Positions 199-15,511 of a stretch of 64,000 nucleotides of DNA are shown piece after piece. The position numbers and the translations under genes were made by a program. The DNA comes from a virus: the IMG/VR virus record IMGVR_UViG_3300045988_168437; one strand, written 5' to 3'. The stretch's first letter is position 1. Each line of letters opens with the position of its first letter. The notes beneath the pieces are model-generated. The model ran no database searches. It was not told the origin of the DNA and was given only the letters and a program-made list of their open reading frames with translations.

Positions 199-214
199 GT
201 TTATTTCCTTTCTG

Positions 215-551: not shown

Positions 552-560
552 AAGACACCC

Positions 561-1148: not shown

Positions 1149-1149
1149 A

Positions 1150-2411: not shown

Positions 2412-2576
2412 ACCACCATACTCCCATTATGAATCCTATACATATTCCAATTATAAGTTTAACCATATTATCACCTCTTTAGTTAGTATTTTTATATCTA
2501 TTCTTATGATTTAATTATATAATTTTAATATCAATGTGTCAACATAAAATAGTAAGAAAAGAGAGGAAATTCCTCT

Positions 2577-3777: not shown

Positions 3778-3805
3778 ATTATTACCTCCAATATGTTTTT
3801 CTTTA

Positions 3806-3834
3806 ATAGTAGCACATATAATTTTTATTTGCAA
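3806..3834 (-). promoter_or_regulatory. parMR promoter candidate
   Basis: On the minus strand: TTGCAA (3834-3829), 17 nt spacer, TACTAT (3811-3806). Confidence 0.55.
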
Positions 3835-3846
3835 TAATTTTTTGTT

Positions 3847-3974
3847 AATATATCGTTAATTTTTCATTAGTGTTTAAAAATATATTAATATATCATTGAG
3901 AAACAATTAATATCTTGTGAATATATCATTAACATTCCTGATGCACTATATTTTTCTGTGAATATATCATTAGT
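3847..3974. repeat. parC-like centromere: four direct repeats of (G)AATATATC(A/G)TTA
   Basis: Copies start at about 3847, 3887, 3920 and 3961, spaced 33-41 bp apart, immediately upstream of the parMR promoter. Confidence 0.65.
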
Positions 3975-4185
3975 AAACCATGAGTATATAACTGACACTC
4001 TCTATACAAGATTTAGAGCGTTTTGTTTTTCTTCCCTTTGTAATTTATCAATATTATTATAATCAAACTCTTAGAATGGCTCTGACGGGGTTGTATAGTA
4101 AGTATGTAAACATTCTATTTTTCATATAGATTTTGCCGTCTTTAAATTATGAATTTTATAATATAATTTCTTGCATTTTTTATTT

Positions 4186-4330
4186 GGAGATTTGGGATTA
4201 GGAGGAGATGTGTGGGGTTTTATTGAGTGTTGGAGGGGTGATTTTGTAGTGTGTCTGCTGCGTAAACAACTGTTGTCGCCTGCCTGAAATACTCGGAAAA
4301 AATTTCCTAAAACTGGGGGGTGGGGGGATA
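4186..4330. other. G-rich (plus-strand) island in an AT-rich desert; candidate ncRNA or DNA structural site
   Basis: Contains GGAGGAG, GTGGGG, GGAGGGG and GGGGGGTGGGGGG (4315-4327), plus the palindrome ACAACTGTTGT. No ORF. Confidence 0.3.
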
Positions 4331-4451
4331 AATTCTATATAATAATTATATTATATCTACTATTTGAAAATAGGAGCATGATTTTTAAAAAAGGCTACTG
4401 GGAGAGGTTCTAAAATTTTACTTGCATTTTTTACGGTGAATAATTGAAAAA

Positions 4452-4553
4452 TTGCAATTGTTTATAAATTGCAAGCCCTTACATTTTTTCGTCAATTTGC
4501 TTAAATCGTCTGACAATTTACTACAATTGCATAATCCCTCATTAAACTTGCAA
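4452..4553. repeat. cluster of TTGCAA / CAATTGCA motifs
   Basis: At least four copies (4452, 4469, 4524, 4548) within about 100 bp. Confidence 0.5.
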
Positions 4554-4957
4554 TTCGACTCCAAAGTTTCATTAATAAAAAAATATAATAATATTTAATA
4601 ATTTATTTAAAAAATAATCCCTTTATTGTCTGAAATTCCATATAATTTTATTATATAACTTTATTGATTTTATGATATAATATAGACAATATAATATATT
4701 ATTTTTACATTTATTCATAGAATTAAAATACTAATGTATTATACTATTATAATTTATAATTAAATATTAAACAATAACTCATATTATATAATATAGTGTC
4801 GAATACATATAACATTTATTAAAAACAGTAACAGTCCATATGGCTTTTTAAAGCCTTTGCATTCCCTTCCTAATACCTTTATACTTTTAAAGCTTTAAAC
4901 TCTTTATAAGCTTAATAACAGGTTATTAGCCTTATAACCTATAATTTACTATTTATA

Positions 4958-5084
4958 AACAAATAGTTTACTAATACTATACTTTAAAAAAAATTAGTAT
5001 TTATATACTAAAAGTTTACTAATACTATACTAAAATAAGTTTAATATTTTTAAACAAATAGTTTACTAATACTATACTTTAAAC
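4958..5084. repeat. iterons: three copies of AGTTTACTAATACTATAC
   Basis: Copies at 4965-4982, 5013-5030 and 5060-5077 (47-48 bp spacing), with a degenerate fourth copy near 5098-5130. Flanked by an extremely AT-rich tract at 4560-4800. Confidence 0.7.
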
Positions 5085-5696
5085 AAGTATATTTATATTA
5101 AACAAATAGTATATAAATATTAAACTTTAAAATTAGGTTTTTTACCTTCTAAAATCCAGTTTAAAAAGCCTATTTTATAAAGGTATAAAAGTACTATATA
5201 TATATTTAGAGTACTTTTATATTGTCAATTAAGGAATATATAACAGGCTTTTTTATCCCTGTTATATTATATCTAACAACTAACTGGTAAAAGATTATAT
5301 ATTAATAGAGGGGATATTATAACCTTGTAACCTGTTATATAGATAATACTAGATATTTACAACTGGATAACTGGATAATAGATTAACACTAGTTAATAAC
5401 TAGTACTCTATATAAGAATATAATAGCCTTATGCTTTATTAATAATATAAATTATCCATAAGCTATATAAAACCTCTTACATTGGCAATACGGGGATATT
5501 TTAGCCTATACAGTATTTTCAGGAATATATAACCATACCATATAAATTTATTTTTATGGATAAATAAAGTTTTTTAAGAAATATTATTTTTATTATTGAA
5601 ATATTAAACTAGATAGTATACTATTAAAGTATCTTAATTGATAAAACATCTTATATTAATAGCTTAAAACTTTTTTAAAAACTTTTTATAAAGTAG

Positions 5697-5725
5697 TTGA
5701 CAATATAAAGTATATAAGCTACAAT
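5697..5725 (+). promoter_or_regulatory. sigma-70-type promoter
   Basis: TTGACA, 17 nt spacer, TACAAT. Confidence 0.65.
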
Positions 5726-5796
5726 ATAAGAAACAGTACTTTTAATATATTAGTTAACAGGCTTTAAAAAAAGTTTAAAAACTTTTAAAAAAGTAG

Positions 5797-5825
5797 TTGA
5801 CAAGTGATTAAAAAAGTACTATACT
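5797..5825 (+). promoter_or_regulatory. sigma-70-type promoter (tandem copy exactly 100 bp downstream of the previous one)
   Basis: TTGACA, 17 nt spacer, TATACT. The upstream AAAACTTTT...AAGTAGTTGACA context is duplicated. Confidence 0.65.
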
Positions 5826-5891
5826 TAAATTAATAAATGAGTTGATAGTTTTACACTAAAAACTTATTTATTACATATTAACCATAGGAAG

Positions 5892-5921
5892 TTGACTTAT
5901 TCAACTACTATACTTTATAAT
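5892..5921 (+). promoter_or_regulatory. sigma-70-type promoter
   Basis: TTGACT, 18 nt spacer, TATAAT. Confidence 0.55.
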
Positions 5922-6189
5922 AAAGGGGACTAGTAAAGTATTAGTTATCTTATATCCTCACCTAAACAACTTGTAGCTTTATAACTTGTACGGTAAAATA
6001 GAATATTCGACAACTTTGGAAAATCCTTCAATATACCGACTACTCTTTATGTAGTAGCTCATTCTAGTATATTAAAAGCCTGTATCTTGAAGTGCTTAAG
6101 AGTGCTTGGAGTTAGGAGTGTAAGAGTAACAACTCTTTGGATTAAGAATAAATTTTTATCTTTAACCTTTTAACCCTTTTTAAAGGTTT

Positions 6190-6220
6190 GGGGGATACCT
6201 GTTTAAAATCCCCTGTTTTA
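6190..6220 (+). terminator. hairpin plus U-tract in the operon leader (possible attenuator)
   Basis: GGGGAT (6191-6196) pairs with ATCCCC (6208-6213), followed by TGTTTTAAAATT. Confidence 0.3.
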
Positions 6221-6292
6221 AAATTAATCTTTGGGTATAAGGTGACAACTTTATACTCAAATACTAGTTTTAAAATAAAAGGGGGATATAAA

Positions 6293-6496
6293 ATGATAAA
6301 TTTAAGAAAAAAACCAGTAGAGACTAAAAATTATAGTGTGCAATTAAACAAAAACGATAGCTTACTATTTAAAGCATTCTTAAAAGGACTTGGAGCAACA
6401 TATGAAACAAGTGCTTGTTATGAGAAAATCCATTTTGAATTAACTTTAAATCGTATGGAATTAGGCAAAGTTGCTAGTTTTTTAAATGAATTATAA
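6293..6496 (+). CDS. small hypothetical protein (67 aa)
   Basis: The ATG at 6293 follows AAAAGGGGGATATAAA. The track ORF from 6188 uses an unlikely upstream TTG. Confidence 0.6.
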   Translation: MINLRKKPVETKNYSVQLNKNDSLLFKAFLKGLGATYETSACYEKIHFELTLNRMELGKVASFLNEL

Positions 6497-6504
6497 TTAT
6501 TCAA

Positions 6505-6521
6505 GGGACTTTAAAAGTCCC
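6505..6521 (+). other. conserved hairpin 5 nt upstream of the HDV-like cleavage site
   Basis: GGGACTTTAAAAGTCCC. Confidence 0.7.
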
Positions 6522-6526
6522 TATAT

Positions 6527-6587
6527 GGTTCTAGTGATTGATAACCTTCTCGTGGTGGGACTGAATTCGACTAATTTCAATCAATCA
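6527..6587 (+). ncRNA. HDV-like self-cleaving ribozyme candidate A
   Basis: P1 GGUUCUA (6527-33) pairs with UGGGACU (6556-62), starting with a G1-U wobble. P2 UGAUUGAU/AUCAAUCA. P3-L3 CC-UUCUCGU-GG, then GA (P1.1), then GACUAA (J4/2 C candidate). Predicted cut 6526|6527. Confidence 0.75.
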
Positions 6588-6613
6588 AATTTTGGATAAA
6601 AGGGGATAAAAAA

Positions 6614-6928
6614 ATGAAAAAATTAAATTTAAGTGGTGGTTTTCAAGTTTGGGCAACAACTGACTATATTCCAAAAATTGGTCATATTTTGATAACTTTA
6701 GACAATGAACCTATTCCAAGCAATCCAAGTGCATGGGATAAAAATTGTCGTATTTATAAGATAGTTAACAACTTTGAAGACTATGAAATTGATGAAATTT
6801 TAGAAAATCAAGAAATTTCTTTAGATTTAATTTTACCTATTCGATTTTATGTAGACTTTAATAAAATTGATAGCAATAACTTTAAAATCATAGTCAATCG
6901 AGCTTTAAAACACTTAAACAGGGATTAA
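6614..6928 (+). CDS. hypothetical protein (104 aa)
   Basis: ORF track. AAAAGGGGATAAAAAA precedes the ATG. Confidence 0.7.
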   Translation: MKKLNLSGGFQVWATTDYIPKIGHILITLDNEPIPSNPSAWDKNCRIYKIVNNFEDYEIDEILENQEISLDLILPIRFYVDFNKIDSNNFKIIVNRALKHLNRD

Positions 6929-6936
6929 TAAATCCC
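6921..6936 (+). other. hairpin upstream of the HDV-like cleavage site (overlaps the stop codon)
   Basis: GGGATTAATAAATCCC. Confidence 0.6.
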
Positions 6937-6941
6937 TTCAT

Positions 6942-6994
6942 GGTAGCAAGAGTCAACCTCCCCGTGGTGCTACTGGATAATCAACTAATGACTC
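6942..6994 (+). ncRNA. HDV-like self-cleaving ribozyme candidate B (minimal, no P4)
   Basis: P1 GGUAGCA/UGCUACU (7 bp, G1-U wobble). P2 GAGUCA/UGACUC. P3-L3 CC-UCCCCGU-GG, GG after P1 (P1.1), and CUAA just before the P2 3' strand. Predicted cut 6941|6942. Confidence 0.8.
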
Positions 6995-7023
6995 AAATAT
7001 AATAATGTAAAGGGGATAAAAAG

Positions 7024-7362
7024 ATGTTAAAAGAAAAATTAAACCAAATTAAAGAAAATTCAGAAGGGATTAAACTATTTGTAATTGACGATATTTTAGA
7101 ATTCAACGAAAGTGATGACGAAATAACAGGTTATGTAAATGATGTATTAAATTATGGTTGTTCTAGTGGTTGTGTATCAAGTTTGATTTATTATAGTGAT
7201 ACAGACAAATTTTTTACAAAATATCATGATGAAATACTTGAAATGTTAGAAGACTTTAAAAATGAATGTGATATAAACTTTGAAATTAATTCAAATAACC
7301 TTGCATGGTTTGGATATGAAGAGACTTTAAGATGTTTAGCAAGTGAATTAGGTATTTGGTAA
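7024..7362 (+). CDS. acidic hypothetical protein (112 aa)
   Basis: ORF track with AAAGGGGATAAAAAG SD context. Confidence 0.7.
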   Translation: MLKEKLNQIKENSEGIKLFVIDDILEFNESDDEITGYVNDVLNYGCSSGCVSSLIYYSDTDKFFTKYHDEILEMLEDFKNECDINFEINSNNLAWFGYEETLRCLASELGIW

Positions 7363-7368
7363 AATGAA

Positions 7369-7385
7369 GGGACTTTTAAAGTCCC
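7369..7385 (+). other. conserved hairpin upstream of the HDV-like cleavage site
   Basis: GGGACTTTTAAAGTCCC. Confidence 0.7.
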
Positions 7386-7390
7386 TAAAT

Positions 7391-7451
7391 GATAGCAAGA
7401 GTTTACCTCCCCGTGGTGCTATTGGAAACAAGGGAACTTGGCTAAAAACTC
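7391..7451 (+). ncRNA. HDV-like self-cleaving ribozyme candidate C
   Basis: P1 GAUAGCA/UGCUAUU. P2 GAGUUU/AAACUC. CC-UCCCCGU-GG, then GG. P4 CAAG-GGAA-CUUG, then GCUAA. Predicted cut 7390|7391. Confidence 0.8.
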
Positions 7452-7479
7452 AAATTTTAGATAAAAGGGGATAAAAAAG

Positions 7480-8028
7480 ATGAAAAATTTAGTAAACTTA
7501 AACGATTTCGAAATAAACAGAGAGAGTGCAAAAATGATGCTTGAAAACAATAGTGAGTTTAGAATGACACTTGAAAATAGTGCTTTTGATAACGAATGTT
7601 TTTATATCAAAGAAGAATATTTAGATTTATTACCTACTGTAAAATATAATATAGATTTCTGTAAAACAAGTTTAAGCATAGGGAATAGTGATGTATACGA
7701 TTTACTTTATGATATAATTTCAGAGTCCGAAACATGGATAGCACACCTTGATGATGTTGAAATTCTTATGCAAAAGATGGAAACTTTCAGAAACATGATG
7801 GGAAATATTGCGGGATATAGTTATCAATATGAAAGACTTGAAAATCGAGCTACTAAACTAATAGAAGAGTTTTTGGAAATCCTTGAAAAACATCTTGAAA
7901 GCATAATTGATGGGATTAATGATGACTATATTGTAGATGATATTCTTAATTCGTGTTTTGATGAAATTTGGAGTGGAATATATATCAATCCTAAGACTTT
8001 TGAATTATACGAGTTAAAACATCTATAA
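7480..8028 (+). CDS. acidic hypothetical protein, paralogue of 9857-10411
   Basis: Shares LVNL(N/S)DFE(I/L)NRE(S/N)AKM(M/I)LENNSEFR and the C-terminal IYINPKT..LYELKHL with ORF 9857. Confidence 0.75.
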   Translation: MKNLVNLNDFEINRESAKMMLENNSEFRMTLENSAFDNECFYIKEEYLDLLPTVKYNIDFCKTSLSIGNSDVYDLLYDIISESETWIAHLDDVEILMQKMETFRNMMGNIAGYSYQYERLENRATKLIEEFLEILEKHLESIIDGINDDYIVDDILNSCFDEIWSGIYINPKTFELYELKHL

Positions 8029-8033
8029 AAATG

Positions 8034-8115
8034 AAGGCGAAATTCGAAACAAGGACCACGGTCCTTGTCTGTAAGTAATGAGTTGCTTATACTGACGAGA
8101 TAGCTCGAGCCTTAC
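8034..8115 (+). ncRNA. type II hammerhead ribozyme candidate HH1
   Basis: C-GAAAC; stem III AAGGACC/GGUCCUU; GUC cut site (8069|8070); stem I UGUAAG/CUUAUA; CUGACGAG. Loop I GAGUU pairs with downstream AGCUC. Closing helix AAGGC/GCCUU. Confidence 0.8.
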
Positions 8116-8141
8116 AAATAAATAAAAAGGGGATAAAAAAG

Positions 8142-8315
8142 ATGAAAAAAAGTGTAAAAATCATGGTAGTTTCAGGAATATTAGTAATAGGAATGATGGT
8201 ATTTCATAAACCATTAACCTTAAAAGCTATGGATTTAGTAGATTATTACGGAGAAAAAACTGGTAAAAATGTTGTAGAAATGATAGACTTTTTAAATGAA
8301 GTTTATTATCTATAA
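8142..8315 (+). CDS. small membrane protein (57 aa, below the ORF-track cutoff)
   Basis: ATG follows AAAAGGGGATAAAAAAG. Reads MKKSVKIMVVSGILVIGMMVFHK... (hydrophobic N-terminus). Flanked by HH1 and HDV-D. Confidence 0.55.
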   Translation: MKKSVKIMVVSGILVIGMMVFHKPLTLKAMDLVDYYGEKTGKNVVEMIDFLNEVYYL

Positions 8316-8321
8316 ATGATA

Positions 8322-8338
8322 GGGACTTTAGAAGTCCC
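8322..8338 (+). other. conserved hairpin upstream of the HDV-like cleavage site
   Basis: GGGACTTTAGAAGTCCC. Confidence 0.7.
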
Positions 8339-8342
8339 GTAT

Positions 8343-8403
8343 GGTTCTAGTTGTTGGTAGCCTTCCCGTGGCGGAACTGAATTCGACTAATTTTAACCAA
8401 CAA
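8343..8403 (+). ncRNA. HDV-like self-cleaving ribozyme candidate D
   Basis: P1 GGUUCU/GGAACU. P2 UUGUUGGU/ACCAACAA, which covaries with copy A. P3-L3 GCC-UUCCCGU-GGC, then GA, then GACUAA. Predicted cut 8342|8343. Confidence 0.75.
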
Positions 8404-8426
8404 AAATGATAGTAAAGGGGATAAAG

Positions 8427-8909
8427 ATGATGATAAAAAGATTACCAGAAACAAGTTTAATGACTATTAAGGCAATGATAAGAGAATATAGCGAAGTTGA
8501 GACAATAGTTATTAATGAAGTGGATAACTACTGGAATGATAGATGTAAGCAAATATATCAAGCTCCAGGGACTTCTTTAGAAGTCGATATATATCAAGGT
8601 ACTTGTAAAATCAATATCCATGATAGAGAATTGATGGTAAGAAGTTTATATGATGAAGCGAATAAATCAACAGATAGTGTATTTCTTGACTCTGAGCGTC
8701 ATTGTATACAAGGTATGTATGCTCATAGAAAAGATGATATGTTTGAAATTTATTTAAAAGCATACATTAGATGTATTGAAGAATATATCTCTAATATGCA
8801 GCATGTATTTGACAAATATTCTCTAGCAACTTGGATACAAAATCATCCTGACAACTTCAACAAGTGGGCAGTAGATGAAGACACTTGCGAATTTTTCAGA
8901 ATGATATAA
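8427..8909 (+). CDS. hypothetical protein
   Basis: Start moved to the ATGATG at 8427, after AAAGGGGATAAAG. The track start at 8406 lies just after the ribozyme and lacks an SD. Confidence 0.7.
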   Translation: MMIKRLPETSLMTIKAMIREYSEVETIVINEVDNYWNDRCKQIYQAPGTSLEVDIYQGTCKINIHDRELMVRSLYDEANKSTDSVFLDSERHCIQGMYAHRKDDMFEIYLKAYIRCIEEYISNMQHVFDKYSLATWIQNHPDNFNKWAVDEDTCEFFRMI

Positions 8910-8914
8910 ATGAT

Positions 8915-8931
8915 GGGACTTTTAAAGTCCC
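8915..8931 (+). other. conserved hairpin upstream of the HDV-like cleavage site
   Basis: GGGACTTTTAAAGTCCC. Confidence 0.7.
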
Positions 8932-8936
8932 TATAT

Positions 8937-8999
8937 GGTAGTAATTGGTTCGCCTCCACGTGGCACTACTGGAAACGAGTTTACTCGGCTAAGAGTCAA
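8937..8999 (+). ncRNA. HDV-like self-cleaving ribozyme candidate E
   Basis: P1 GGUAGU/ACUACU. P3-L3 GCC-UCCACGU-GGC, then GG. P4 CGAG-UUUA-CUCG, then GCUAAG. P2 UUGGUU/AGUCAA (two G-U pairs). Predicted cut 8936|8937. Confidence 0.7.
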
Positions 9000-9018
9000 A
9001 AAAGAAGGGATAAAAAAG

Positions 9019-9339
9019 ATGATAAAAAAGATTGAAGAAAAAATTAAAGAATTGGGTTTCGTTGTAGGTTGTTACAACGATAAAATTGATGACATTTTAA
9101 CTCCAGGAGCAGCTCGTAAAGTTTGTGGGTTACTAGAAGAAGAATACACAGACGAATTGATGCGAATTAGAGGTAAACTATATAAAGTCTGTATAGCAAC
9201 TGTTGACGATGAAAAAGATATCAATATATATCATGCATTAGACTATTATAGACAATACGGAGAAGAACATCTGGATAATGACTATGAAGAAAAAATGATG
9301 ACATTAAAGGAATATAGAGCATTGAAAAAGATGGTATAA
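9019..9339 (+). CDS. hypothetical protein (106 aa)
   Basis: Start moved to the ATG at 9019, after AGAAGGGATAAAAAAG. The track start at 8935 lies inside the ribozyme. Confidence 0.7.
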   Translation: MIKKIEEKIKELGFVVGCYNDKIDDILTPGAARKVCGLLEEEYTDELMRIRGKLYKVCIATVDDEKDINIYHALDYYRQYGEEHLDNDYEEKMMTLKEYRALKKMV

Positions 9340-9340
9340 A

Positions 9341-9430
9341 ACAAATTCGAAACAAAGGACCATGGAGTAATTCATGGTCCTTTGTCTGTAAGCAATAGGC
9401 TACTTATACTGACGAGATAGCCTGTTGCTA
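9341..9430 (+). ncRNA. type II hammerhead ribozyme candidate HH2
   Basis: UUCGAAAC; stem III AAAGGACCAUG/CAUGGUCCUUU; GUC (cut 9386|9387); stem I UGUAAG/CUUAUA; CUGACGAG. Loop I CAAUAGGCUA pairs with downstream UAGCCUGUUG. Confidence 0.8.
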
Positions 9431-9456
9431 AAAATGATGATAAAAAGGGGATAAGA

Positions 9457-9744
9457 ATGATGAGAGAACATGCAATATATAAAGATTATATCAGATATAT
9501 AGGAGATGGATTTAATTTTTCAGAATTATATTCATATGAAGATGGTAAAGAATTACATTTCAATAAATTTATGGATTATTGGGAAGACTCTAAAACTGGT
9601 AGATTTTATCGTTGGAAAAATTCAAAAGATGATAAAATTATAAAGGAATGTCATGAAGAAACACTTGATTATTTTGGATTTAAATCTAGTCGACTAAATG
9701 ATGATAAAGAATCTTTAAAAGATGAAGAATATCTACCATTCTAA
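9457..9744 (+). CDS. hypothetical protein (95 aa)
   Basis: ORF track with AAAAGGGGATAAGA SD context. Confidence 0.7.
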   Translation: MMREHAIYKDYIRYIGDGFNFSELYSYEDGKELHFNKFMDYWEDSKTGRFYRWKNSKDDKIIKECHEETLDYFGFKSSRLNDDKESLKDEEYLPF

Positions 9745-9746
9745 TG

Positions 9747-9829
9747 AAGGTAATAAATTCGAAACAAGGACTAAGGTCCTTGTCTGTAAATGATAGGCTC
9801 TTTATACTGACGAGATAGCCTATTACCTT
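9747..9829 (+). ncRNA. type II hammerhead ribozyme candidate HH3
   Basis: Closing helix AAGGUAAU/AUUACCUU; UUCGAAAC; stem III AAGGAC/GUCCUU; GUC (cut 9784|9785); stem I UGUAAA/UUUAUA; CUGACGAG. Loop I AUAGGCU pairs with downstream AGCCUAU. Confidence 0.85.
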
Positions 9830-9856
9830 TACAATAGAAATGAAAGGGGATTAAAG

Positions 9857-10411
9857 ATGATGATGGGAAAATTAGTAAACTTAAGTGACTTTGAATTAAA
9901 TAGAGAAAATGCAAAAATGATACTTGAAAACAATAGTGAGTTTAGACAAGTTTTAATTGATGAATTATTTGAAAATGAAATTGATTATTATTGTTCAGAA
10001 ATATTAGAAAAAATACCTGAAATAAGTTGGAATATCAATTATTCAGATGTTAGAATATGGACTAAGTTTGGTTCTAATGTTATTAACATAATTGAAGGTA
10101 TATTTGATATTGACGAATATCTTACAGAAAACTGTAATATCATAATCAGTAAATTAAAAGTTTATCATAAATATCTGACTACTTGTTGTCAATATGATAA
10201 TAGATGGGATAGATTAATTGCTAGAACTGAAAAATTAGTTGACGATTTATTGAATGAACTTGAGCAAATGATAGGAACATATTTAGAAGCGATTAACGAT
10301 GATGATGACGAAATAATCGAATATTGTATAAGTTCAATGGAAGGGATTATATGTTCTACAATTTATATAAATCCTAAAACATTAGATTTATACGAATTAA
10401 AGCATTTATAA
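9857..10411 (+). CDS. acidic hypothetical protein, paralogue of 7480-8028
   Basis: See the 7480 entry. AAAGGGGATTAAAG SD context. Confidence 0.75.
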   Translation: MMMGKLVNLSDFELNRENAKMILENNSEFRQVLIDELFENEIDYYCSEILEKIPEISWNINYSDVRIWTKFGSNVINIIEGIFDIDEYLTENCNIIISKLKVYHKYLTTCCQYDNRWDRLIARTEKLVDDLLNELEQMIGTYLEAINDDDDEIIEYCISSMEGIICSTIYINPKTLDLYELKHL

Positions 10412-10413
10412 TA

Positions 10414-10442
10414 TTGACAGTTTTACACAAAAGTGATACTAT
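10414..10442 (+). promoter_or_regulatory. internal sigma-70-type promoter
   Basis: TTGACA, 17 nt spacer, TACTAT. Confidence 0.6.
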
Positions 10443-10448
10443 TAAATC

Positions 10449-10530
10449 AAGGGGAGTAATCCCCTTCCTAATGCAGTAGCTAAAAGCTAGAGGTCGCAAC
10501 TCCTCATAAAACATATGCAGAGCGGGAAAA
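10449..10530 (+). ncRNA. unclassified structured leader (three hairpins) in a slot otherwise occupied by ribozymes
   Basis: AAGGGGA-GUAA-UCCCCUU, UAGCU-AAA-AGCUA, and GAGG-UCGCAACU-CCUC. I cannot match it to a known core. Confidence 0.3.
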
Positions 10531-10545
10531 TGAAAGGGGATAAAG

Positions 10546-10992
10546 ATGATGAAAATAAAAGAATTATATGAAAACATTAGTAACTGTTTAGATTGGATTA
10601 AAATCAACAATAGTGACTTAAAAGACATATTTGAAGGTGCTAAAGCATTAAGAAGAGGAATTCAAGTCTTAGAATATGATAAAGCAATGATAGGTAAAAT
10701 TGATGATAACTATTTTATTTCAGATTTTATTATGAATATTCTTAAAAAGAATCTTCCAGAGTATCAATTAAGTTTAGGCATAATTGACGATGTTTTAGAA
10801 GAACTAGACATAGATGATGATACTTTAGAAGAATTAGATGAAAGCGAATTTGAAAATCATGTTATAATCAAAAATACTTTCGTAGATGTAAAAGAAGCAA
10901 TTTCTTTTGATGATTACTGGGATTTACCAGATTTTGATAGTCTTTTAAAAATGTTTGAATTTGCAAAAGAAGAAATTGGTTACTTATTATAA
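10546..10992 (+). CDS. very acidic hypothetical protein (148 aa)
   Basis: ORF track with AAAGGGGATAAAG SD context. Confidence 0.7.
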   Translation: MMKIKELYENISNCLDWIKINNSDLKDIFEGAKALRRGIQVLEYDKAMIGKIDDNYFISDFIMNILKKNLPEYQLSLGIIDDVLEELDIDDDTLEELDESEFENHVIIKNTFVDVKEAISFDDYWDLPDFDSLLKMFEFAKEEIGYLL

Positions 10993-11082
10993 GTTTAAAT
11001 TCGAAACAGGTAGTACAGGAAATCCTGTATTGCTTGTCTGTAAGTAATAGGCTACTTATACTGACGAGATAGCCTGAACTTA
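10990..11082 (+). ncRNA. type II hammerhead ribozyme candidate HH4
   Basis: Closing helix UAAGUU/AACUUA; UUCGAAAC; 12-bp stem III AGGUAGUACAGG/CCUGUAUUGCUU; GUC (cut 11038|11039); UGUAAG/CUUAUA; CUGACGAG. Loop I AGGCUA pairs with UAGCCU. Confidence 0.8.
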
Positions 11083-11110
11083 TAAATATGATGATAAAAA
11101 GGGGATAAAG

Positions 11111-11557
11111 ATGATGGCAAAGAGAATTGATATAGTAAGATGTAAAATGGTAAAGGAAAGTTCAGTTAAGTATGAAAAAAGAGTGATAACATCACCTTTT
11201 GATGGCTATATAATAGTAAAAGATTTTCTTGAAGACTTAGACAGAGAACAAGTGATGATGCTTTGTTTAAATAGTAAAAATGAACCTACAAACTTATCTG
11301 TTATAAGTATGGGGACTGTAAATAGTTCATTGATACATCCAAGAGAAGTATTTAAAATAGCAATACTTTCAAATGCTAGTAAAATCATGTTGGCACATAA
11401 TCATCCATCAGGAAATCCAAGTCCTTCTCATGAAGATGAATTAATGACAAAGAGAATCAAAGATTGTGGAGATATGATGGGAATTCAATTATTGGACCAT
11501 ATAATTGTAGGCGATAACACTTATTATAGTTTTAAAGAAAATAATTCAATATTATAA
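11111..11557 (+). CDS. radC: RadC-like JAB/MPN-domain protein
   Basis: HNHPSGNPSPSHED (JAMM-like H-x-H-P-S-G...S-x-x-D motif typical of RadC/DUF2466). 148 aa. Confidence 0.8.
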   Translation: MMAKRIDIVRCKMVKESSVKYEKRVITSPFDGYIIVKDFLEDLDREQVMMLCLNSKNEPTNLSVISMGTVNSSLIHPREVFKIAILSNASKIMLAHNHPSGNPSPSHEDELMTKRIKDCGDMMGIQLLDHIIVGDNTYYSFKENNSIL

Positions 11558-11565
11558 TATTTTAC

Positions 11566-11594
11566 TTGTTATCTTTATACAAAAATGATATAAT
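11566..11594 (+). promoter_or_regulatory. internal sigma-70-type promoter immediately upstream of HDV-like ribozyme F
   Basis: TTGTTA, 17 nt spacer, TATAAT. The predicted TSS is near 11601. Confidence 0.55.
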
Positions 11595-11610
11595 AAGGAT
11601 AGCAAGATAT

Positions 11611-11674
11611 GACGGCAAAGGTTCTTCCTCCCCGTGGTGTCGTCGGGAACTCCTAACAGGTGCTAAATAGAACC
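11611..11674 (+). ncRNA. HDV-like self-cleaving ribozyme candidate F
   Basis: P1 GACGGCA/UGUCGUC. P2 GGUUCU/AGAACC. CC-UCCCCGU-GG, then GG. P4 CUCCU-AAC-AGGUG, then GCUAA. Predicted cut 11610|11611. Confidence 0.75.
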
Positions 11675-11695
11675 AAAAATGAAAGGGGAATAAAG

Positions 11696-12082
11696 ATGAT
11701 GAAAGAATTAAAAAGACTAAATCAAATTGATTTAACAGAAAATCAAACAAAAAAACTCTTAAATAATGATATTTTTAAGGAAAGTGTCATAGACAAACTT
11801 GCTAGTTATTTTAATCATTGTATTTATGAAAAATATGTACTTAATCATATAATTCATTTTGAATGTGAATACAATACAAAAACAAATTTCTTTAAATATA
11901 AAATAGTTGAAGAGAATGATAAAAATCAAGAAGTTTTGGATAACTTAAAAAACGATATAAATAACTATTATCAATATTTGCAAGATAAAAATAGCCTTAA
12001 AGAGAATATAAAAGTCATCGTAAAGAGATTAGATGATAATTATTATGTTGATAATGATTTTAATGTTTATAAAGTTATTTAG
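11696..12082 (+). CDS. hypothetical protein
   Basis: Start moved to the ATGATG at 11696, after AAAGGGGAATAAAG. The track start at 11660 lies inside the ribozyme. Confidence 0.7.
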   Translation: MMKELKRLNQIDLTENQTKKLLNNDIFKESVIDKLASYFNHCIYEKYVLNHIIHFECEYNTKTNFFKYKIVEENDKNQEVLDNLKNDINNYYQYLQDKNSLKENIKVIVKRLDDNYYVDNDFNVYKVI

Positions 12083-12091
12083 GAGGTAAAA

Positions 12092-12358
12092 ATGATGAAA
12101 ACTTTAAATCAAATTGAATGGAAAAATCTGTTAAAAAATATGGATACAGAAGAAGGCAGACAAGAGTTTATAAGCAGAGTACCATCTGGAATATATGGTG
12201 GTAAAAATGAAGACGGAGAAGAAGTTATAACAGTTGTATCTCAAGGATTTGGGATGACAATAAAGACTAAACATCATGAGAAACCAAACTGGTGGGAATG
12301 TGTTGATTATGATGAACTTGGCTGCATGGAATGTGTAACATATGAAAGAGCAGATTAA
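12092..12358 (+). CDS. hypothetical protein (88 aa)
   Basis: ORF track with AGGAGGT SD. Confidence 0.7.
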   Translation: MMKTLNQIEWKNLLKNMDTEEGRQEFISRVPSGIYGGKNEDGEEVITVVSQGFGMTIKTKHHEKPNWWECVDYDELGCMECVTYERAD

Positions 12359-12361
12359 TTA

Positions 12362-12454
12362 GAAGGATAAATTCGAAACAGGTAGAATGAGGCAACTCAT
12401 TTTACTTGTCTATAAGGTTAAGCTACTTATACTGACGAGATAGCTTAATCCTTC
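12362..12454 (+). ncRNA. type II hammerhead ribozyme candidate HH5
   Basis: Closing helix GAAGGAU/AUCCUUC; UUCGAAAC; 12-bp stem III; GUC (cut 12410|12411); stem I UAUAAG/CUUAUA; CUGACGAG. Loop I UUAAGCUA pairs with UAGCUUAA, which covaries relative to the other copies. Confidence 0.85.
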
Positions 12455-12476
12455 AAAATGAAAGGGGATAAAAAAG

Positions 12477-13004
12477 ATGATGAAAAGAGAAAATGTTGTG
12501 AAATTTTTAGATTTATTACGTTCTGATGAAGTTAATGACGAAATAAAAGATTTATATATTGAACTATTAGAAGGACATATTCAAGATGCTCCAGGAACTC
12601 AAATTGAAATTATATTAGACTTAGACGGAGAAATTGATGAAAGATACTTTGTAGGAAATTCAACTAGAATGGATGTATATGAAGGCGATGCAATAGTTGT
12701 AGCAAGTATCAGATATGATGCAAACGTTACTTATGAAGACATGGGAGAATTATCAGATGCTTTAGATGAATCTGAATATGAAAAATTCGTAGAATGGATA
12801 TTTGCATACGAAGATATATCAGAAGATGATGAAAAAGAATATTTCGAAGAAAACTTTACATGGGAAAATTTTTCAGAATTTAATCCTGATAGATTTAAAG
12901 AGCTAGAAGAAGAATCTTGGCAAGCAAATGTTGATTATTACGGATATGAAGAAATTGGGCAAAAATTATCTGAATGTATACAACAATTAGAAACTTTATT
13001 ATAG
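12477..13004 (+). CDS. extremely acidic hypothetical protein (175 aa); DNA-mimic-like composition
   Basis: ORF track with long D/E-rich runs. No motif recognised. Confidence 0.7.
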   Translation: MMKRENVVKFLDLLRSDEVNDEIKDLYIELLEGHIQDAPGTQIEIILDLDGEIDERYFVGNSTRMDVYEGDAIVVASIRYDANVTYEDMGELSDALDESEYEKFVEWIFAYEDISEDDEKEYFEENFTWENFSEFNPDRFKELEEESWQANVDYYGYEEIGQKLSECIQQLETLL

Positions 13005-13020
13005 GGGCAGCAATTGCTCC

Positions 13021-13080
13021 TACTTTAAACCTACCAATGATGGTCCAAAGTCCATATGGAAAAAGGTGATGGGAGTAAAT
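13021..13080 (+). ncRNA. twister ribozyme candidate (type P1) Tw1
   Basis: UACU-U-U|AA; P2 ACCU/AGGU; ACC-AAU-G; P4 AUGG/CCAU with loop UCCAAAGU; A-rich strand; GAU-GGG-AGUA. Same block order as canonical twister. Predicted cut 13026|13027. Preceded by hairpin 13006-13020. Confidence 0.7.
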
Positions 13081-13141
13081 AAAGGCGAAGCTACTAAAAT
13101 ACTCGTCTATATATAAGAGTAGCAATTAAAAGGGGGTAAAA

Positions 13142-13456
13142 ATGAAGGTATATTTAGGGAATGCTTTTAGTTTACAAATGTTAGACACAACAAAGACTAC
13201 AGATATAAAAGTAACACCAGTTGATGCATCAGTTGTAGCAAGTTCAGATTTTACATCAGTTATAGGTCATCCAGATACAGCTGCAGTAGTTTCAAACATC
13301 TTAGGAAAAGACGTAGCTTGTAATAGAGTTTCTGTTAGTTTAAGTAAAGGTGACATTTTATATGTAGCACAAGTTGTTGGTGGCAGACTTCCTGCTGGAG
13401 CTACCACTCTACCAGACGGATTTAGTTTAGTATTTTTAAAAGTTGTCATTCTATAA
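13142..13456 (+). CDS. DUF1874 / STIV-B116-like protein (family assignment from memory)
   Basis: 104 aa. MKVYLGNAFSLQML...SVIGHPDTAAVVSNILG...ILYVAQ resembles that family. Confidence 0.45.
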   Translation: MKVYLGNAFSLQMLDTTKTTDIKVTPVDASVVASSDFTSVIGHPDTAAVVSNILGKDVACNRVSVSLSKGDILYVAQVVGGRLPAGATTLPDGFSLVFLKVVIL

Positions 13457-13521
13457 AAAGGTAGAAGGCTTATAGGAGTGTCTCAAACTCCTACATTATG
13501 TAAATGAAGGGAGAATTAAAA

Positions 13522-13659
13522 ATGAAAGTTAAAAAAGAAATTACAATTGAAGAAGAATTTGAAATACATATGAAAAGCATGGAAGGGCATGTTTGCTATG
13601 GTTGCTCAGGTTGTAAGTTTGCTTACTATGGAGTTTGCCCATATGTTCAAGAGGGTTAA
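13522..13659 (+). CDS. small Cys-rich protein (45 aa, below the ORF-track cutoff)
   Basis: ATG follows GAAGGGAG. Reads MKVKKEITIEEEFEIHMKSMEGHVCYGCSGCKFAYYGVCPYVQEG. Confidence 0.4.
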   Translation: MKVKKEITIEEEFEIHMKSMEGHVCYGCSGCKFAYYGVCPYVQEG

Positions 13660-13665
13660 TCCCTC

Positions 13666-13730
13666 TACTTTAAACTCACTTGACTAAGTCAAAAGGTCCA
13701 AAGTCCTTGAAAAGAGTGATGGGAGTAAAT
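13666..13730 (+). ncRNA. twister ribozyme candidate (type P1, with P3 insert) Tw2
   Basis: Same conserved blocks as Tw1. P2 ACUC/GAGU and P4 AAGG/CCUU both covary. An extra hairpin UGAC-UAA-GUCA sits at the optional-P3 position. Predicted cut 13671|13672. Preceded by hairpin GAGGG-UUAAU-CCCUC. Confidence 0.7.
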
Positions 13731-13747
13731 GAAAGGGGTAAAATGAT

Positions 13748-14023
13748 ATGAATAATTCTATTAAAAGATTAAAAGAAAAATTAATTGGAAAAGAATTCAA
13801 AGAAGAAGATTATAATAAAGAGTTAAATAATCTTGTAAAAGAATTTCATTTAGAGGCAAATACTTGTGATTTTGATTTTGACAGATTATATCACATTGGA
13901 TATGAAGAAAAAGAAAATTGGGATGATGAATATGTTTGTAGTATACAAGTTAATTATATTCCTGTATATGATGAAAATGGATATCATGACTTTGATATCA
14001 TAAAAATATTTGATGTGTTTTAA
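13748..14023 (+). CDS. hypothetical protein (91 aa)
   Basis: ORF track with AAAGGGGTAAAATG context. Confidence 0.65.
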   Translation: MNNSIKRLKEKLIGKEFKEEDYNKELNNLVKEFHLEANTCDFDFDRLYHIGYEEKENWDDEYVCSIQVNYIPVYDENGYHDFDIIKIFDVF

Positions 14024-14053
14024 TATAATTAAATCATATAGGGAGGTATGAAA

Positions 14054-14221
14054 ATGAGAACTTACTTAGCAGATTATGAAGACGATAATTTTGAAACAAT
14101 AATAGCGAATACAGATAATGAAGCTTACTTTGAAGCTCTTGACCATGAAGAAGAACATGGGACTTTATATAATCTTTTTGAAATTGATGATGACTACAAT
14201 AAAATAAGAGAAGTTAAATAG
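14054..14221 (+). CDS. small acidic protein (55 aa, below the ORF-track cutoff)
   Basis: ATG sits 7 nt after GGGAGGT. Reads MRTYLADYEDDNFETIIANTDNEAYFEALDHEEEHG... and its stop abuts HH6. Confidence 0.5.
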   Translation: MRTYLADYEDDNFETIIANTDNEAYFEALDHEEEHGTLYNLFEIDDDYNKIREVK

Positions 14222-14296
14222 AAGGCAAAATTCGAAACCGTGGTGGTCCACGGTCTGTAAGCAATAGGCTACTTATACTGACGAGATAGCCTTGCC
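14221..14296 (+). ncRNA. type II hammerhead ribozyme candidate HH6
   Basis: Closing helix GGCAA/UUGCC; UUCGAAAC; stem III CGUGG/CCACG; GUC (cut 14255|14256); UGUAAG/CUUAUA; CUGACGAG. Loop I AGGCUA pairs with UAGCCU. Confidence 0.8.
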
Positions 14297-14426
14297 AACA
14301 ATAAAAAGGAAGGTAAGATAAAATAGCTATCAAGAACTCGTGAAAACGGGTGTTGAATAAATTATCATTTTGGGAGAGGGTTGCCCTCTCCTATCCCCAA
14401 TATAAATGGGAGAGAGGAGTATAATA

Positions 14427-14777
14427 ATGATAAATACTTATGCTTATGAAATAAAACCACATATCTTTGACAGTATTATAGTTACTGTGAAAGATGATGA
14501 TAATAACTATGTTGAATTATTAGCTATGAAAGATAAGACAATTGGGGATTATAGAACTTTTTTACACGGTGAAGTAAATAGCACTATTTTCCAAAAAGAT
14601 TATCGTAATAGTAAATATTATAAAAAGGTAGGCAGAGGTAGAATAAAGGACGAAAAAAGAACCCTAGATACAATTAGCAGATTAGTTGGGACAGGAAAAC
14701 ATATTATTCTTTTTCGTTTAGATAACTATATAAAAGATAATAATTTTGAAGGTGACATTAAAATATCATTTAAGTAA
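14427..14777 (+). CDS. hypothetical protein
   Basis: Start moved to the ATG at 14427, after GAGAGGAG. Confidence 0.65.
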   Translation: MINTYAYEIKPHIFDSIIVTVKDDDNNYVELLAMKDKTIGDYRTFLHGEVNSTIFQKDYRNSKYYKKVGRGRIKDEKRTLDTISRLVGTGKHIILFRLDNYIKDNNFEGDIKISFK

Positions 14778-14786
14778 TATATATAA

Positions 14787-14814
14787 TAATCCCCTGATTG
14801 GGGGTTATTTTTTT
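14787..14814 (+). terminator. rho-independent terminator closing the ribozyme operon
   Basis: TAATCCCC-TGATT-GGGGGTTA followed by TTTTTTT. Confidence 0.75.
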
Positions 14815-14847
14815 GCTTAAAAATAATTTATTTTTTACAGAAATCAC

Positions 14848-14876
14848 TTGCAAGTTTTATATCAAAATGCTATAAT
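14848..14876 (+). promoter_or_regulatory. sigma-70-type promoter with extended -10
   Basis: TTGCAA, 17 nt spacer, (TGc)TATAAT. About 45 bp is near-identical to the promoter at 30329. Confidence 0.7.
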
Positions 14877-14898
14877 TAAATCAAAGGCGGTGAATAAT

Positions 14899-15189
14899 AT
14901 GAAAAATATTTCATTAGTGCAACTTAGAAAAGATTACAATTATCTAAATAGTAAAATTTCTTATCATGTGTTAAATGAAGATGAACTATTAAATGAAGTT
15001 GTTCCTAAAATGTTGAGCGGGAAAATGGATTTAAAAAACTTTATTCTGTGGGCAATAAAAGATACTATAACATATGTAGTAGAAGACAGAGAGGCAATGA
15101 ATACAAAAGAAGACATTGAATTTATTGAATCAGATAAAAGATTTAAAAGGATTCTTGACAGATACGATATTGATATAGAGGAGGTTTAA
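14899..15189 (+). CDS. hypothetical protein, tandem paralogue of 15191-15511
   Basis: Start moved to the ATG at 14899. Shares the L(K/N)..F(I/L)LW(A/S)I.D.I..V and SD.R(F/V)KRI(L/I) pattern with the next ORF. Confidence 0.65.
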   Translation: MKNISLVQLRKDYNYLNSKISYHVLNEDELLNEVVPKMLSGKMDLKNFILWAIKDTITYVVEDREAMNTKEDIEFIESDKRFKRILDRYDIDIEEV

Positions 15190-15190
15190 T

Positions 15191-15511
15191 ATGAATATAG
15201 AGCAACAATTAAAAGGATTAGAAATAAAACAATCTACAACTACTCTAAGAGCAGATTTTGAATATTTAGATGATAATATCAATTGGTATCTAATTGATGA
15301 AGCAATATTAGTAACAGAAATTGCTCCAGGATTGCAATATGGAACACTAAATCTAAAACAATTTTTGCTTTGGAGCATCTGGGACATTATTGCTTTTGTT
15401 ATTATAGAAAATCATGACGAAGATGATGTCAATTTTGTTAAAACAGACAGTAGGGTTAAAAGAATCATAAGAAAATATGGTTTAAAAGAAAGTATAGAAA
15501 AATTACTATAG
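15191..15511 (+). CDS. hypothetical protein, tandem paralogue of 14899-15189
   Basis: ORF track; see the previous entry. Confidence 0.65.
   Translation: MNIEQQLKGLEIKQSTTTLRADFEYLDDNINWYLIDEAILVTEIAPGLQYGTLNLKQFLLWSIWDIIAFVIIENHDEDDVNFVKTDSRVKRIIRKYGLKESIEKLL

Follow-up and report, generated by a model that had tools for sequence, protein, structure and literature searches.

A stretch of 64,000 nt of viral DNA (IMG/VR virus record IMGVR_UViG_3300045988_168437; the whole stretch is referred to here as the 64-kb window, with positions counted from its first nucleotide) carries an operon of ∼8.5 kb in which small genes are separated by self-cleaving RNA motifs. Direct reading of positions 5600 to 15000, with a division into genes and spacers, gave 19 genes on the + strand, encoding 45 to 184 amino acids and spanning 6293 to 14777, together with 15 motifs: six ribozymes of the hepatitis delta virus type (HDV-like), six type II hammerheads, and three twister-P1 ribozymes. 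All 15 units occupy intergenic spacers of the coding strand, the first beginning at 6527 and the last ending at 14294. Each of the 15 spacers, 88 to 184 nt long, holds one compact motif, placed 12 to 58 nt past the stop codon and 66 to 171 nt ahead of the next start, so that no open reading frame (ORF) would be truncated by cleavage. The other four junctions are short; those of the window measure 9, 24, and ∼65 nt, and one of 13 nt is found in the sister genomes described below. Pfam and PHROGs gave names to only three of the 19 gene products, a RadC-like JAB protein (11111 to 11557), a DUF7222 protein (7024 to 7362), and an STIV_B116-like protein (13142 to 13456), and no anti-defense function could be assigned from them; nearly all of the genes are ORFans, which fits an early or accessory region. 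The order of genes and motifs given in an earlier note on this DNA was recovered exactly. Its count of 14 units was right for the six HDV-like ribozymes and the six hammerheads and one short for the twisters, as the segment at 10464 to 10529, which it had listed as an unknown leader, was identified as a third twister.

The sequence was searched with the covariance models of Rfam. At gathering scores, the sole match in the 64 kb was RAGATH-18 at 31615 to 31688, which despite its name is unrelated to the ribozyme operon. With relaxed thresholds, the region from 5500 to 15200 (9.7 kb) gave three twister-P1 and two HDV-F-prausnitzii matches, all below the gathering score, and Hammerhead_II (RF02276) gave no match at any threshold, including an E value of ≤10 on a 126-nt slice. 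Because Rfam returned no hammerhead match, three models were built: R1, for hammerheads, from 20 sequences; R2, for HDV-like units, with window units B, C, E, and F among its seeds, so that their scores arise partly by construction; and R3, for twisters, with Tw1 and Tw2 among its seeds. MAFFT alignments of all HDV-like and of all twister units were structurally wrong, and subsets with model-based realignment were used instead. By Rfam and these three models, the remaining ∼50 kb of the window is without further units; since unit A and Tw0 escape R2 and R3, respectively, and unit D is barely seen by R2, the lack of a hit elsewhere is weak evidence of absence.

Over the 64-kb window, R1 gave exactly six matches, with scores of 67 to 77 bits and E values of ∼1e-17 to 1e-20. 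These are HH1 at 8041 to 8108 (predicted cut 8069/8070; 70.2 bits), HH2 at 9344 to 9425 (9386/9387; 71.7 bits), HH3 at 9756 to 9823 (9784/9785; 77.3 bits), HH4 at 10998 to 11077 (11038/11039; 68.8 bits), HH5 at 12370 to 12448 (12410/12411; 67.6 bits), and HH6 at 14229 to 14294 (14255/14256; 74.5 bits), all on the + strand. All six run in the order AAAUUC-GAAAC, stem III, GUC/U (the cut), stem I, and CUGACGA-G-AUAGCY, which gives a three-way junction with loops on stems I and III and with stem II open. The type II core reads CUGACGA, (C)GAAA, and GUC then U in every copy (CUGACGA / GAAA / GUC in HH1), and these columns are invariant in the alignment. Stem II consists of one G-C pair, the downstream AUAGCY... 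pairs with loop I, and a variable outer helix closes the unit, being AAGGC/GCCUU in HH1 and AAGGUAAU/AUUACCUU in HH3. The pseudoknot between loop I and the 3' tail can form six or seven pairs in each of the six copies (GAGUUG × UAGCUC in HH1, UAAGCUA × UAGCUUA in HH5, or, for example, AGGCUA × UAGCCU). This pseudoknotted type II architecture with a 1-bp stem II was characterized biochemically in PMC3088659.

In 52 distinct hammerhead sequences, 90.4% of cells paired, compared with 62% in shuffles and 32 to 39% in slid controls, and the covariation score, with the pseudoknot included, was 0.659 versus 0.162 in shuffles. Stem III paired in 98.3% of cells with double changes in 5/7 pairs, and stem I paired in 98.4% with double changes in 5/5 pairs; across the family, double changes were also found in 5/7 pairs of the loop I-tail pseudoknot. 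Three members of the R1 alignment pass the RF02276 gathering score (L053:624-690, L056:2619-2684, and L052:4840-4919), and through them the window copies are linked to the curated family. By pattern scanning, this subtype also turned up in further viral contigs and in a few genomes. The search of genome contigs gave 20 loci, against an estimated ∼30 chance matches, of which only four (L031, L038, L039, and L040) fold as hammerheads, and it says little about hosts. In the sister contig L002, two hammerheads (6728 to 6808 and 8701 to 8782) have the sequence CUGAUGAUGAUAGCC, in which a U is inserted between A9 and G10.1, and gave a lower R1 score of ∼50 bits; these may be inactive copies or represent a tolerated variant of the core.

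The HDV-like units, also on the + strand, are HDV-A at 6527 to 6587 (predicted cut 6526/6527), HDV-B at 6942 to 6994 (6941/6942), HDV-C at 7391 to 7451 (7390/7391), HDV-D at 8343 to 8402 (8342/8343), HDV-E at 8937 to 8999 (8936/8937), and HDV-F at 11611 to 11674 (11610/11611). Their common fold consists of a 6-bp P1 starting at G1, a P2 of 6 to 8 bp, a 3-bp P3, P1.1, and an optional P4, and thus of the nested double pseudoknot P1/P1.1/P2/P3. P4 is present in C and E, and A, B (53 nt), and D are minimal forms without it. All helices form in 10 units, six from the window and four from L002, and in 8 further variants of the A/D type. Each window unit carries [A/G]CUAA in J4/2, the C of which we take, by its role in the family, to be the catalytic base, and L3 with UNCNCGU. 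A G1.U wobble closes P1 in five of the six, and among 15 distinct sequences this pair is GU in 13 and GC in the other 2. Within the window, R2 placed four of the six units at 60 to 84 bits, all of them seeds (B, 69.3; C, 83.7; E, 75.5; F, 60.2), and it also found the sister orthologs; D scored weakly at 14.9 bits, and A gave no match at an E value of ≤1. The model is too narrow for the A/D subtype, and the P4-less units A and D fold correctly by hand parsing; HDV-A, for instance, has a P1 of 6 bp with the G1.U wobble, a P2 of 8 bp, a P3 of 3 bp, UUCUCGU in L3, and ACUAA in J4/2. Against a gathering score of 44, Rfam HDV-F-prausnitzii (RF02682) gave 24.3 bits for HDV-C and 40.2 bits (E value 9e-5) for HDV-E, and the relaxed search of 5500 to 15200 gave no match to A, B, D, or F.

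Covariation was also found in this class, HDV-B being assigned by fold and covariation as well as by R2. In the 15 distinct sequences, 97.2% of cells paired, with a covariation score of 0.50 versus 0.21 and with double changes in 5/6 pairs of P1, 5/6 of P2, 1/3 of P3, and 2/4 of P4; P1.1 is invariant and so uninformative on covariation. Within the A/D subtype, compensatory changes were seen in P1 (GGUUCU/GGGACU versus GGUAUU/GAUACC), in P2 (UGAUUGAU/AUCAAUCA versus UUGUUGGU/ACCAACAA versus UGGUUGAU/AUCAACCA), and in P3 (ACC/GGU versus GCC/GGC). Those of HDV-D relative to unit A lie in P2 (UUGUUGGU/ACCAACAA) and P3 (GCC/GGC), those of HDV-A relative to L002, L059, and L062 in P1 and P2, and those of HDV-E relative to L002 in P2 and P4. 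HDV-F is identical or near-identical in five sister genomes. A separate, nearly invariant hairpin, GGGACUUUNAAAGUCCC, found by regular expression and folding, stands 4 to 5 nt ahead of the cut at five of the six units (6505 to 6521, 7369 to 7385, 8322 to 8338, and 8915 to 8931, with a variant at 6920 to 6937, all on the + strand) and is missing only at the promoter-proximal HDV-F. A dedicated hairpin would be needed at these units because an HDV-like ribozyme leaves none of itself on the upstream product.

The three twisters are Tw0 at 10464 to 10529 (predicted cut 10469/10470; Rfam twister-P1, 35.9 bits, E value 6e-5), Tw1 at 13021 to 13077, which lacks P3 (13026/13027; 34.4 bits, 2e-4), and Tw2 at 13666 to 13727, which has P3 (13671/13672; 46.6 bits, 5e-8). 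All are on the + strand, and each is preceded by a hairpin (10449 to 10466, 13002 to 13022, and 13650 to 13666, respectively). None reached the RF03160 gathering score of 67.2 bits. R3 gave 74.6 bits for Tw1 and 72.5 bits for Tw2, both seeds of the model, and also recovered relatives. The twister-P1 fold was found, with P1, P2, P4, an optional P3, and the pseudoknots T1 and T2. In 10 distinct sequences of the Tw1/Tw2 type, 96.5% of cells paired and 13/22 pairs showed double changes, which fell in P1, P2, P3, P4, and T1, with T2 invariant. T1 covaries (AC × GU versus GC × GC), and T2 covaries between Tw0 (CGC × GCG) and the Tw1/Tw2 type (CCA × UGG). The L002 ortholog of Tw0 differs by a compensatory change in P1, from UUCC/GGAA to UUCU/AGAA. 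An extra hairpin lies between Tw1 and its ribosome-binding site (RBS) on the + strand (13078 to 13141; GCUACU...AGUAGC) and reads GUUACC...GGUAAC in L002, again a compensatory change. By core sequence and covariation, the motifs are genuine members of the three ribozyme classes to which the earlier note had assigned them.

The transcription signals proposed in that note, promoters within 5697 to 5921 and a terminator at 14787 to 14814, were borne out as consensus matches, that of the terminator falling at 14785 to 14809. Three tandem σ70-type promoters (5697 to 5725, 5797 to 5825, and 5892 to 5921), each with 11/12 consensus positions, are the best three + strand consensus matches of the region and are kept in sister phages, and the operon ends at a + strand intrinsic terminator with a 10-bp stem followed by a T-run (14785 to 14814). 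Two further + strand promoters are internal. One, at 10414 to 10442 (TTGACA, 17 nt, TACTAT, extended TG), lies upstream of the hairpin and Tw0 and is kept in L002; the other, at 11566 to 11594 (TTGTTA, 17 nt, TATAAT, extended TG), lies ∼15 nt upstream of HDV-F. Both are thus placed to fire directly into a ribozyme, so that even the triphosphate 5' end of the primary transcripts would be replaced, which argues that defined ends matter and not merely the separation of cistrons. A scan of the + strand found no terminator within the operon and no terminator-like site at any ribozyme spacer, and a reading of the spacers as terminators or attenuators was dropped.

The predicted RNA ends share a common anatomy. 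A hairpin of −8 to −23 kcal/mol lies 1 to 5 nt ahead of the cut at every unit but HDV-F, which stands behind an internal promoter. The predicted 5' ends lie inside P1 in HDV-like units, at the first pair of stem I in hammerheads, and 2 nt ahead of P2 in twisters. The 5' untranslated regions (5'UTRs) past the cuts measure 66 to 89 nt in 12 of the 15 cases, those of Tw1 (115 nt) and HH6 (171 nt) containing extra structure, and at their 3' end they carry the strong RBS AAAGGGGAUAAA, a few nucleotides, and AUG. AAAGGGG occurs in 14 + strand copies between 6278 and 13732 and in none on the − strand of the window. The same RBS module had been claimed after every unit; AAAGGGG follows 13 of the 15 ribozymes, while at HDV-E the variant is AAGAAGGGAT, and past HH6 comes an RBS-like AAGGAAGG that lacks a start codon.

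From this anatomy, it is probable that the operon RNA is cut by the intergenic ribozymes into defined, insulated messages. The three tandem and two internal promoters would give long + strand RNAs, in which each of the 15 ribozymes would cut itself during or soon after transcription, yielding single-gene mRNAs and, in four places, two-gene mRNAs. The upstream products would end at a stable hairpin, 1 to 5 nt from the 2',3'-cyclic phosphate, which would be supplied by stem III in the hammerheads and by the dedicated preceding hairpin in the HDV-like and twister units, and the downstream products would start with a 5'-OH in or beside a helix. With its own nuclease-protected ends and the same translation start, each cassette would be expressed independently of its neighbors, and the phage could then add, drop, and reshuffle accessory genes freely. 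Three unrelated classes would be interchangeable because any fast self-cleaver would suffice. The sequence comparisons establish what the motifs are, their conservation and covariation, the anatomy of the predicted ends, cassette mosaicism, and one class swap; cleavage in vivo, one long transcript as its substrate, and a benefit in stability or insulation are what we infer from the arrangement. The cutting of a polycistron into single-gene mRNAs agrees with this anatomy and is the explanation already published for arrays of this type.

Comparative evidence came from ten sister genomes, among them L002, a 138-kb IMG/VR contig with a mosaic operon, and eight further metagenomic loci found through homologs of the protein encoded at 7480 to 8028. 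The longest sister contigs measure 134 to 140 kb, and one locus, L061, equals the window over the compared 701-nt promoter-and-leader stretch, its genes and ribozymes standing in the same order as those of the window. Maps of genes and ribozymes gave 7 to 16 ribozymes per sister locus, some loci being incomplete, with whole genes present or absent between ribozymes; the ribozyme units persist in ten genomes, with varying genes around them. When spacers were compared, the ribozyme was found to move with the upstream gene and the last 20 to 30 nt, including the RBS, with the downstream gene. The breakpoint in the compared junctions lies just 3' of the ribozyme core and, for hammerheads, past the invariant end ...CUGACGAGAUAGCC. 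Within one genome, spacers of the same class are 70 to 90% identical.

At one junction the class itself has changed. The gene at 7480 to 8028 is followed by HH1 in the window and by its counterpart in six other genomes, whereas in L002 and L059 it is followed by a twister, and this twister spacer also occurs in L058 after a different gene. In the twister versions of L002 and L059, the old stem III hairpin and the following GUCU are kept, the hammerhead core is lost, and the twister begins directly after. Hence, what persists is a hairpin plus a cut and not one particular fold, and this class swap offers direct comparative evidence that would point to cleavage, and not a single motif, as the object of selection.

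The same comparisons bear on a different explanation, in which the spacers are kept mainly as homology blocks for cassette recombination and cleavage is secondary or incidental. It would account for the whole-cassette gene differences across the ten genomes, for breakpoints just 3' of the invariant hammerhead end, and for the high identity of same-class spacers within a genome, but homology blocks have no need for intact cores, compensatory changes, or three folds, and the swap of a hammerhead for a twister kept the cleavage module while homology was lost. We consider this explanation unlikely as the main reason for the spacers. A recombination joint is likely a second function beside cleavage, the two roles being compatible, and the cutting of the operon RNA into insulated messages remains the preferred reading.

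Traces of cassette turnover were also seen in and around the operon. A paralog pair inside it (7480 to 8028 and 9857 to 10411, family g4) and a second pair just past it (14899 to 15189 and 15191 to 15511, family g19) are consistent with cassette duplication. Past HH6, at 14295 to 14426, an RBS-like AAAAAGGAAGG without a start codon is followed by two hairpins, including GGAGAGGGUUGCCCUCUCC, and the last gene starts 171 nt past the HH6 cut; this segment may be the scar of a lost cassette, and the sister locus L064 carries extra cassettes at the same place.

Several points weigh against the proposed cutting into insulated messages. None of the 15 units reaches its Rfam gathering score, and the hammerheads have no Rfam match, an outcome that the earlier note, in proposing a covariance-model check against Rfam, had counted as refuting; that check fails here for technical reasons, Hammerhead_II missing even the 126-nt slice at the relaxed threshold, and Rfam used alone would wrongly have refuted a real feature. 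The alignments used for the pair counts were fitted to our own models and so favor the modeled structures, and many sister genomes are closely related, so that covariation cells are not independent events. HDV-F is atypical, with G1-C in place of G1.U and a U.U at the base of P3, and T1 of Tw0, the least certain of the 15 units, needs a register shift of one nucleotide, made by eye. Self-cleavage at the 15 sites is itself predicted from sequence, and with two internal promoters not all of the mRNAs need processing for separation. In partition-function folding, the mean unpaired probability of the RBS was 0.74 when cleaved and 0.67 when uncleaved; the RBS is thus already open without cleavage, and unmasking of the RBS by cleavage was not supported. 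Protected ends and context independence are therefore favored as the benefit, to which we would give about an even chance.

RNase J1 reportedly degrades the 5'-OH RNA that glmS ribozyme cleavage leaves in Bacillus subtilis, which means that a 5'-OH alone does not stabilize an RNA and also counts against the proposal. It further provides a precedent for a reading in which early or accessory mRNAs would be made shorter-lived by the ribozymes, the 5'-OH being exposed to an RNase J-type exonuclease so that expression comes as a brief pulse. The phage has a candidate enzyme in the β-CASP/RMMBL nuclease encoded at 56579 to 58036, a host enzyme being the alternative, and the ribozymes right after internal promoters stand where separation of cistrons is unneeded. 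However, in all three classes the new 5' end is base-paired or within 2 nt of a helix and the upstream products end in a hairpin, and a paired 5' end with a 3' hairpin is a classic stabilizing arrangement, not an entry site for exonucleases, so that a role in shortening mRNA life seems distinctly improbable and production of insulated messages is retained.

A reading of the motifs as degenerate remnants or accidental resemblances that do not cleave, and of the spacers as mere stem-loops, is hardly credible: the sub-gathering Rfam scores and unmatched hammerheads would suit it, but 12 of the 15 units have model E values of ∼1e-12 to 1e-20 (with window units forming part of the seeds for the HDV-like and twister models), all invariant core nucleotides are present, the helices and most pseudoknots covary, and the units are conserved in ten genomes despite varying flanking genes.

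Two arrangements from outside the ribozyme-array literature resemble the operon in part. In synthetic insulators of the RiboJ type, a self-cleaver between the promoter or upstream sequence and the RBS gives a fixed, context-free 5'UTR. Compared with these engineered elements, the natural modules give the upstream RNA a 3' hairpin as well, and RBS unmasking is little supported here. PeSL cassettes, in the hyperplastic regions of T4-type phages, are mobile promoter/stem-loop repeats between small accessory genes that serve as gene-shuffling joints, and they offer the closest analogy for the homology-block explanation. They likewise mark the joints at which genes are shuffled, but they are promoters or terminator-like hairpins acting at the level of DNA and transcription, not catalytic RNAs.

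Self-cleaving ribozymes clustered around phage genes are a known kind of system (PMC3088659 and, in the passages searched, PMC6765202), and several self-cleavers on the coding strand bracket phage genes here (19 genes, 15 units). In work on prophages, Perreault et al. (2011, PMC3088659) found hammerheads that flank single genes or short gene blocks, showed that polycistronic transcripts of ∼2 kb were cleaved in vitro and that one array was cleaved in Escherichia coli, and proposed that long phage transcripts are cut into gene-length mRNAs. Strand bias, gene bracketing, and proposed role are the same as in the window. However, those arrays are hammerhead-only, the tested ones having 3 units, whereas 15 units of three classes occur here at about one per gene, with a hairpin ahead of nearly every cut, a near-uniform RBS, and comparative data from sister genomes. 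According to the passages searched of a 2019 review (PMC6765202), twister, hammerhead, pistol, hatchet, and twister-sister ribozymes share gene neighborhoods in bacteria and phages, efficient cleavage is needed while the exact motif is unimportant, and the biological reason for the clustering is still open. The class swap supports the view, as given in those passages, that motif identity is unimportant; HDV-like ribozymes, present here, are not named in them among such neighborhoods, and relative to the neighborhoods they describe the locus adds an anatomy suggesting end protection and cassette autonomy.

Minimal HDV-like ribozymes are known from gut phages as theta ribozymes, which adjoin and process viral tRNAs, the non-tRNA cases being left with "unknown biological functions" (Kienbeck et al. 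2024, PMC10879173). Unit B, and a unit of the unrelated contig L207 described below, are likewise 53-nt minimal folds, but the window units lie between protein-coding genes without a tRNA, and ARAGORN found no tRNA gene over the 64-kb window. A theta-type role in tRNA processing was considered for these units and dropped, the fold being the same and the window being without tRNAs. The statement of the earlier note that the operon is not a described system was too strong in view of the hammerhead arrays of PMC3088659; the HDV-like third class and the class swapping between sister phages appear to be new details. Provisionally, no description was found in the searchable literature of HDV-like ribozymes as regular members of such arrays, or of a dedicated upstream hairpin, a class swap at an orthologous junction, or breakpoints beside ribozyme cores.

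Related arrangements were found in other viral contigs. L056 (IMGVR_UViG_3300033551_000003, 65 kb) has ∼15 R1 hammerhead matches on one strand within 1 to 11100, a hammerhead-only array at least as dense as that of the window, and L050 and L054 have three R1 hammerhead matches each. The HDV core pattern CCUCCNCGUGG...UGGAWA occurs in >119 viral stretches. R2 was run on 79 loci and confirmed 77 units there, and R1 found no hammerhead in any of these loci. Many of the core matches lie inside tRNA arrays, the theta context of PMC10879173, and others in loci without tRNAs. Groups of three to four HDV-like matches (27 to 47 bits with R2) on one strand of high-GC contigs, with no nearby tRNA genes (L163, L150, and L160/L198), may be gene-punctuating arrays that are HDV-like only. 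In L207 (IMGVR_UViG_3300021399_000119, 115 kb), at 900 to 3300, small ORFs alternate with three self-cleavers that fall on one strand within 1.6 kb: the 53-nt HDV-like unit at 1243 to 1295, a pistol at 2011 to 2074 (54.8 bits), and a twister-P5 at 2731 to 2781 (38.2 bits), the latter two above their Rfam gathering scores. Mixed arrays with HDV-like ribozymes thus exist outside the phage clade of the window. In six unrelated RadC-bearing loci with a GC fraction of ∼0.74 (L011, L013-L016, and L019), weak hammerhead matches (21 to 26 bits) were seen ∼0.3 to 1.5 kb from RadC-like genes, which hints that RadC is recurrently ribozyme-associated.

Between the tandem promoters and the first gene lies a conserved, structured noncoding leader of ∼330 nt (5964 to 6292, + strand). 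It is 82 to 99% identical in six sister genomes, its minimum free energy z-score is −3.95, and compensatory changes occur in several of its hairpins; Rfam gave no family match within it. In L063-L065, an extra gene with an HDV-like cassette is inserted ahead of the leader.

The operon lies in an accessory or early region of an uncultured phage of ∼140 kb, the host of which is probably a low-GC Firmicute. Megablast of the operon gave no match among deposited phages and, among plasmids, a sole match of 81 nt to the JAB gene of a Clostridioides difficile plasmid. The window encodes ParM-like, PolIII alpha, NrdD/NrdG, DnaB-like helicase, ERF, and integrase proteins, as well as a GP17-like superinfection-exclusion protein, a sigma factor, and DNA methylases. 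Among deposited sequences, the nearest PolIII alpha genes, at 35 to 38% identity, come from phage records of 113 to 176 kb, mostly from Firmicutes, and include those of Geobacillus E3, C. difficile phiCD211, and Lactococcus phiL47. At 30446 to 31688, a TnpB ORF (HTH_OrfB_IS605, OrfB_IS605, and Cas12f1-like TNB) is followed 54 nt on by a full-length RAGATH-18 RNA (67.6 bits), an arrangement resembling that of an IS607-type TnpB and its guide reRNA (PMC11061315). The window also encodes an RlaP-like nucleotidyltransferase (29341 to 30306), annotated as an "RNA repair pathway" protein, a DHH/DHHA1 phosphoesterase (31814 to 32764), a calcineurin-like metallophosphoesterase (47387 to 48055), and the β-CASP/RMMBL (RNase J/CPSF-like) nuclease (56579 to 58036). 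Any of these four proteins might act on the 2',3'-cyclic phosphate or 5'-OH ends left by ribozymes.

The question why hammerheads and twisters of bacteria and phages are found in clusters beside the same genes has stood open since 2011 to 2015. The locus makes it directly testable, with 15 units of three classes in one operon and with readable ends, and the sister phages are natural experiments in which genes occur with or without a given neighbor and one junction carries either a hammerhead or a twister. As a tentative generalization, which we rate at somewhat under an even chance, hairpin-ribozyme-RBS modules could be a general "end kit" of phage accessory cassettes, made up of a 3' hairpin, a self-cleaver of whichever class, and a standard RBS. 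It would free the expression of each small gene from its neighbors, with cores that double as recombination joints for the movement of cassettes from phage to phage and with HDV-like ribozymes, including the many orphan theta-like ones not beside tRNAs, as a regular third or fourth component next to hammerhead, twister, and pistol. The locus itself offers a plausible job for minimal HDV-like phage ribozymes that do not adjoin tRNAs and, if confirmed, would be a natural counterpart of the ribozyme insulators of synthetic biology.

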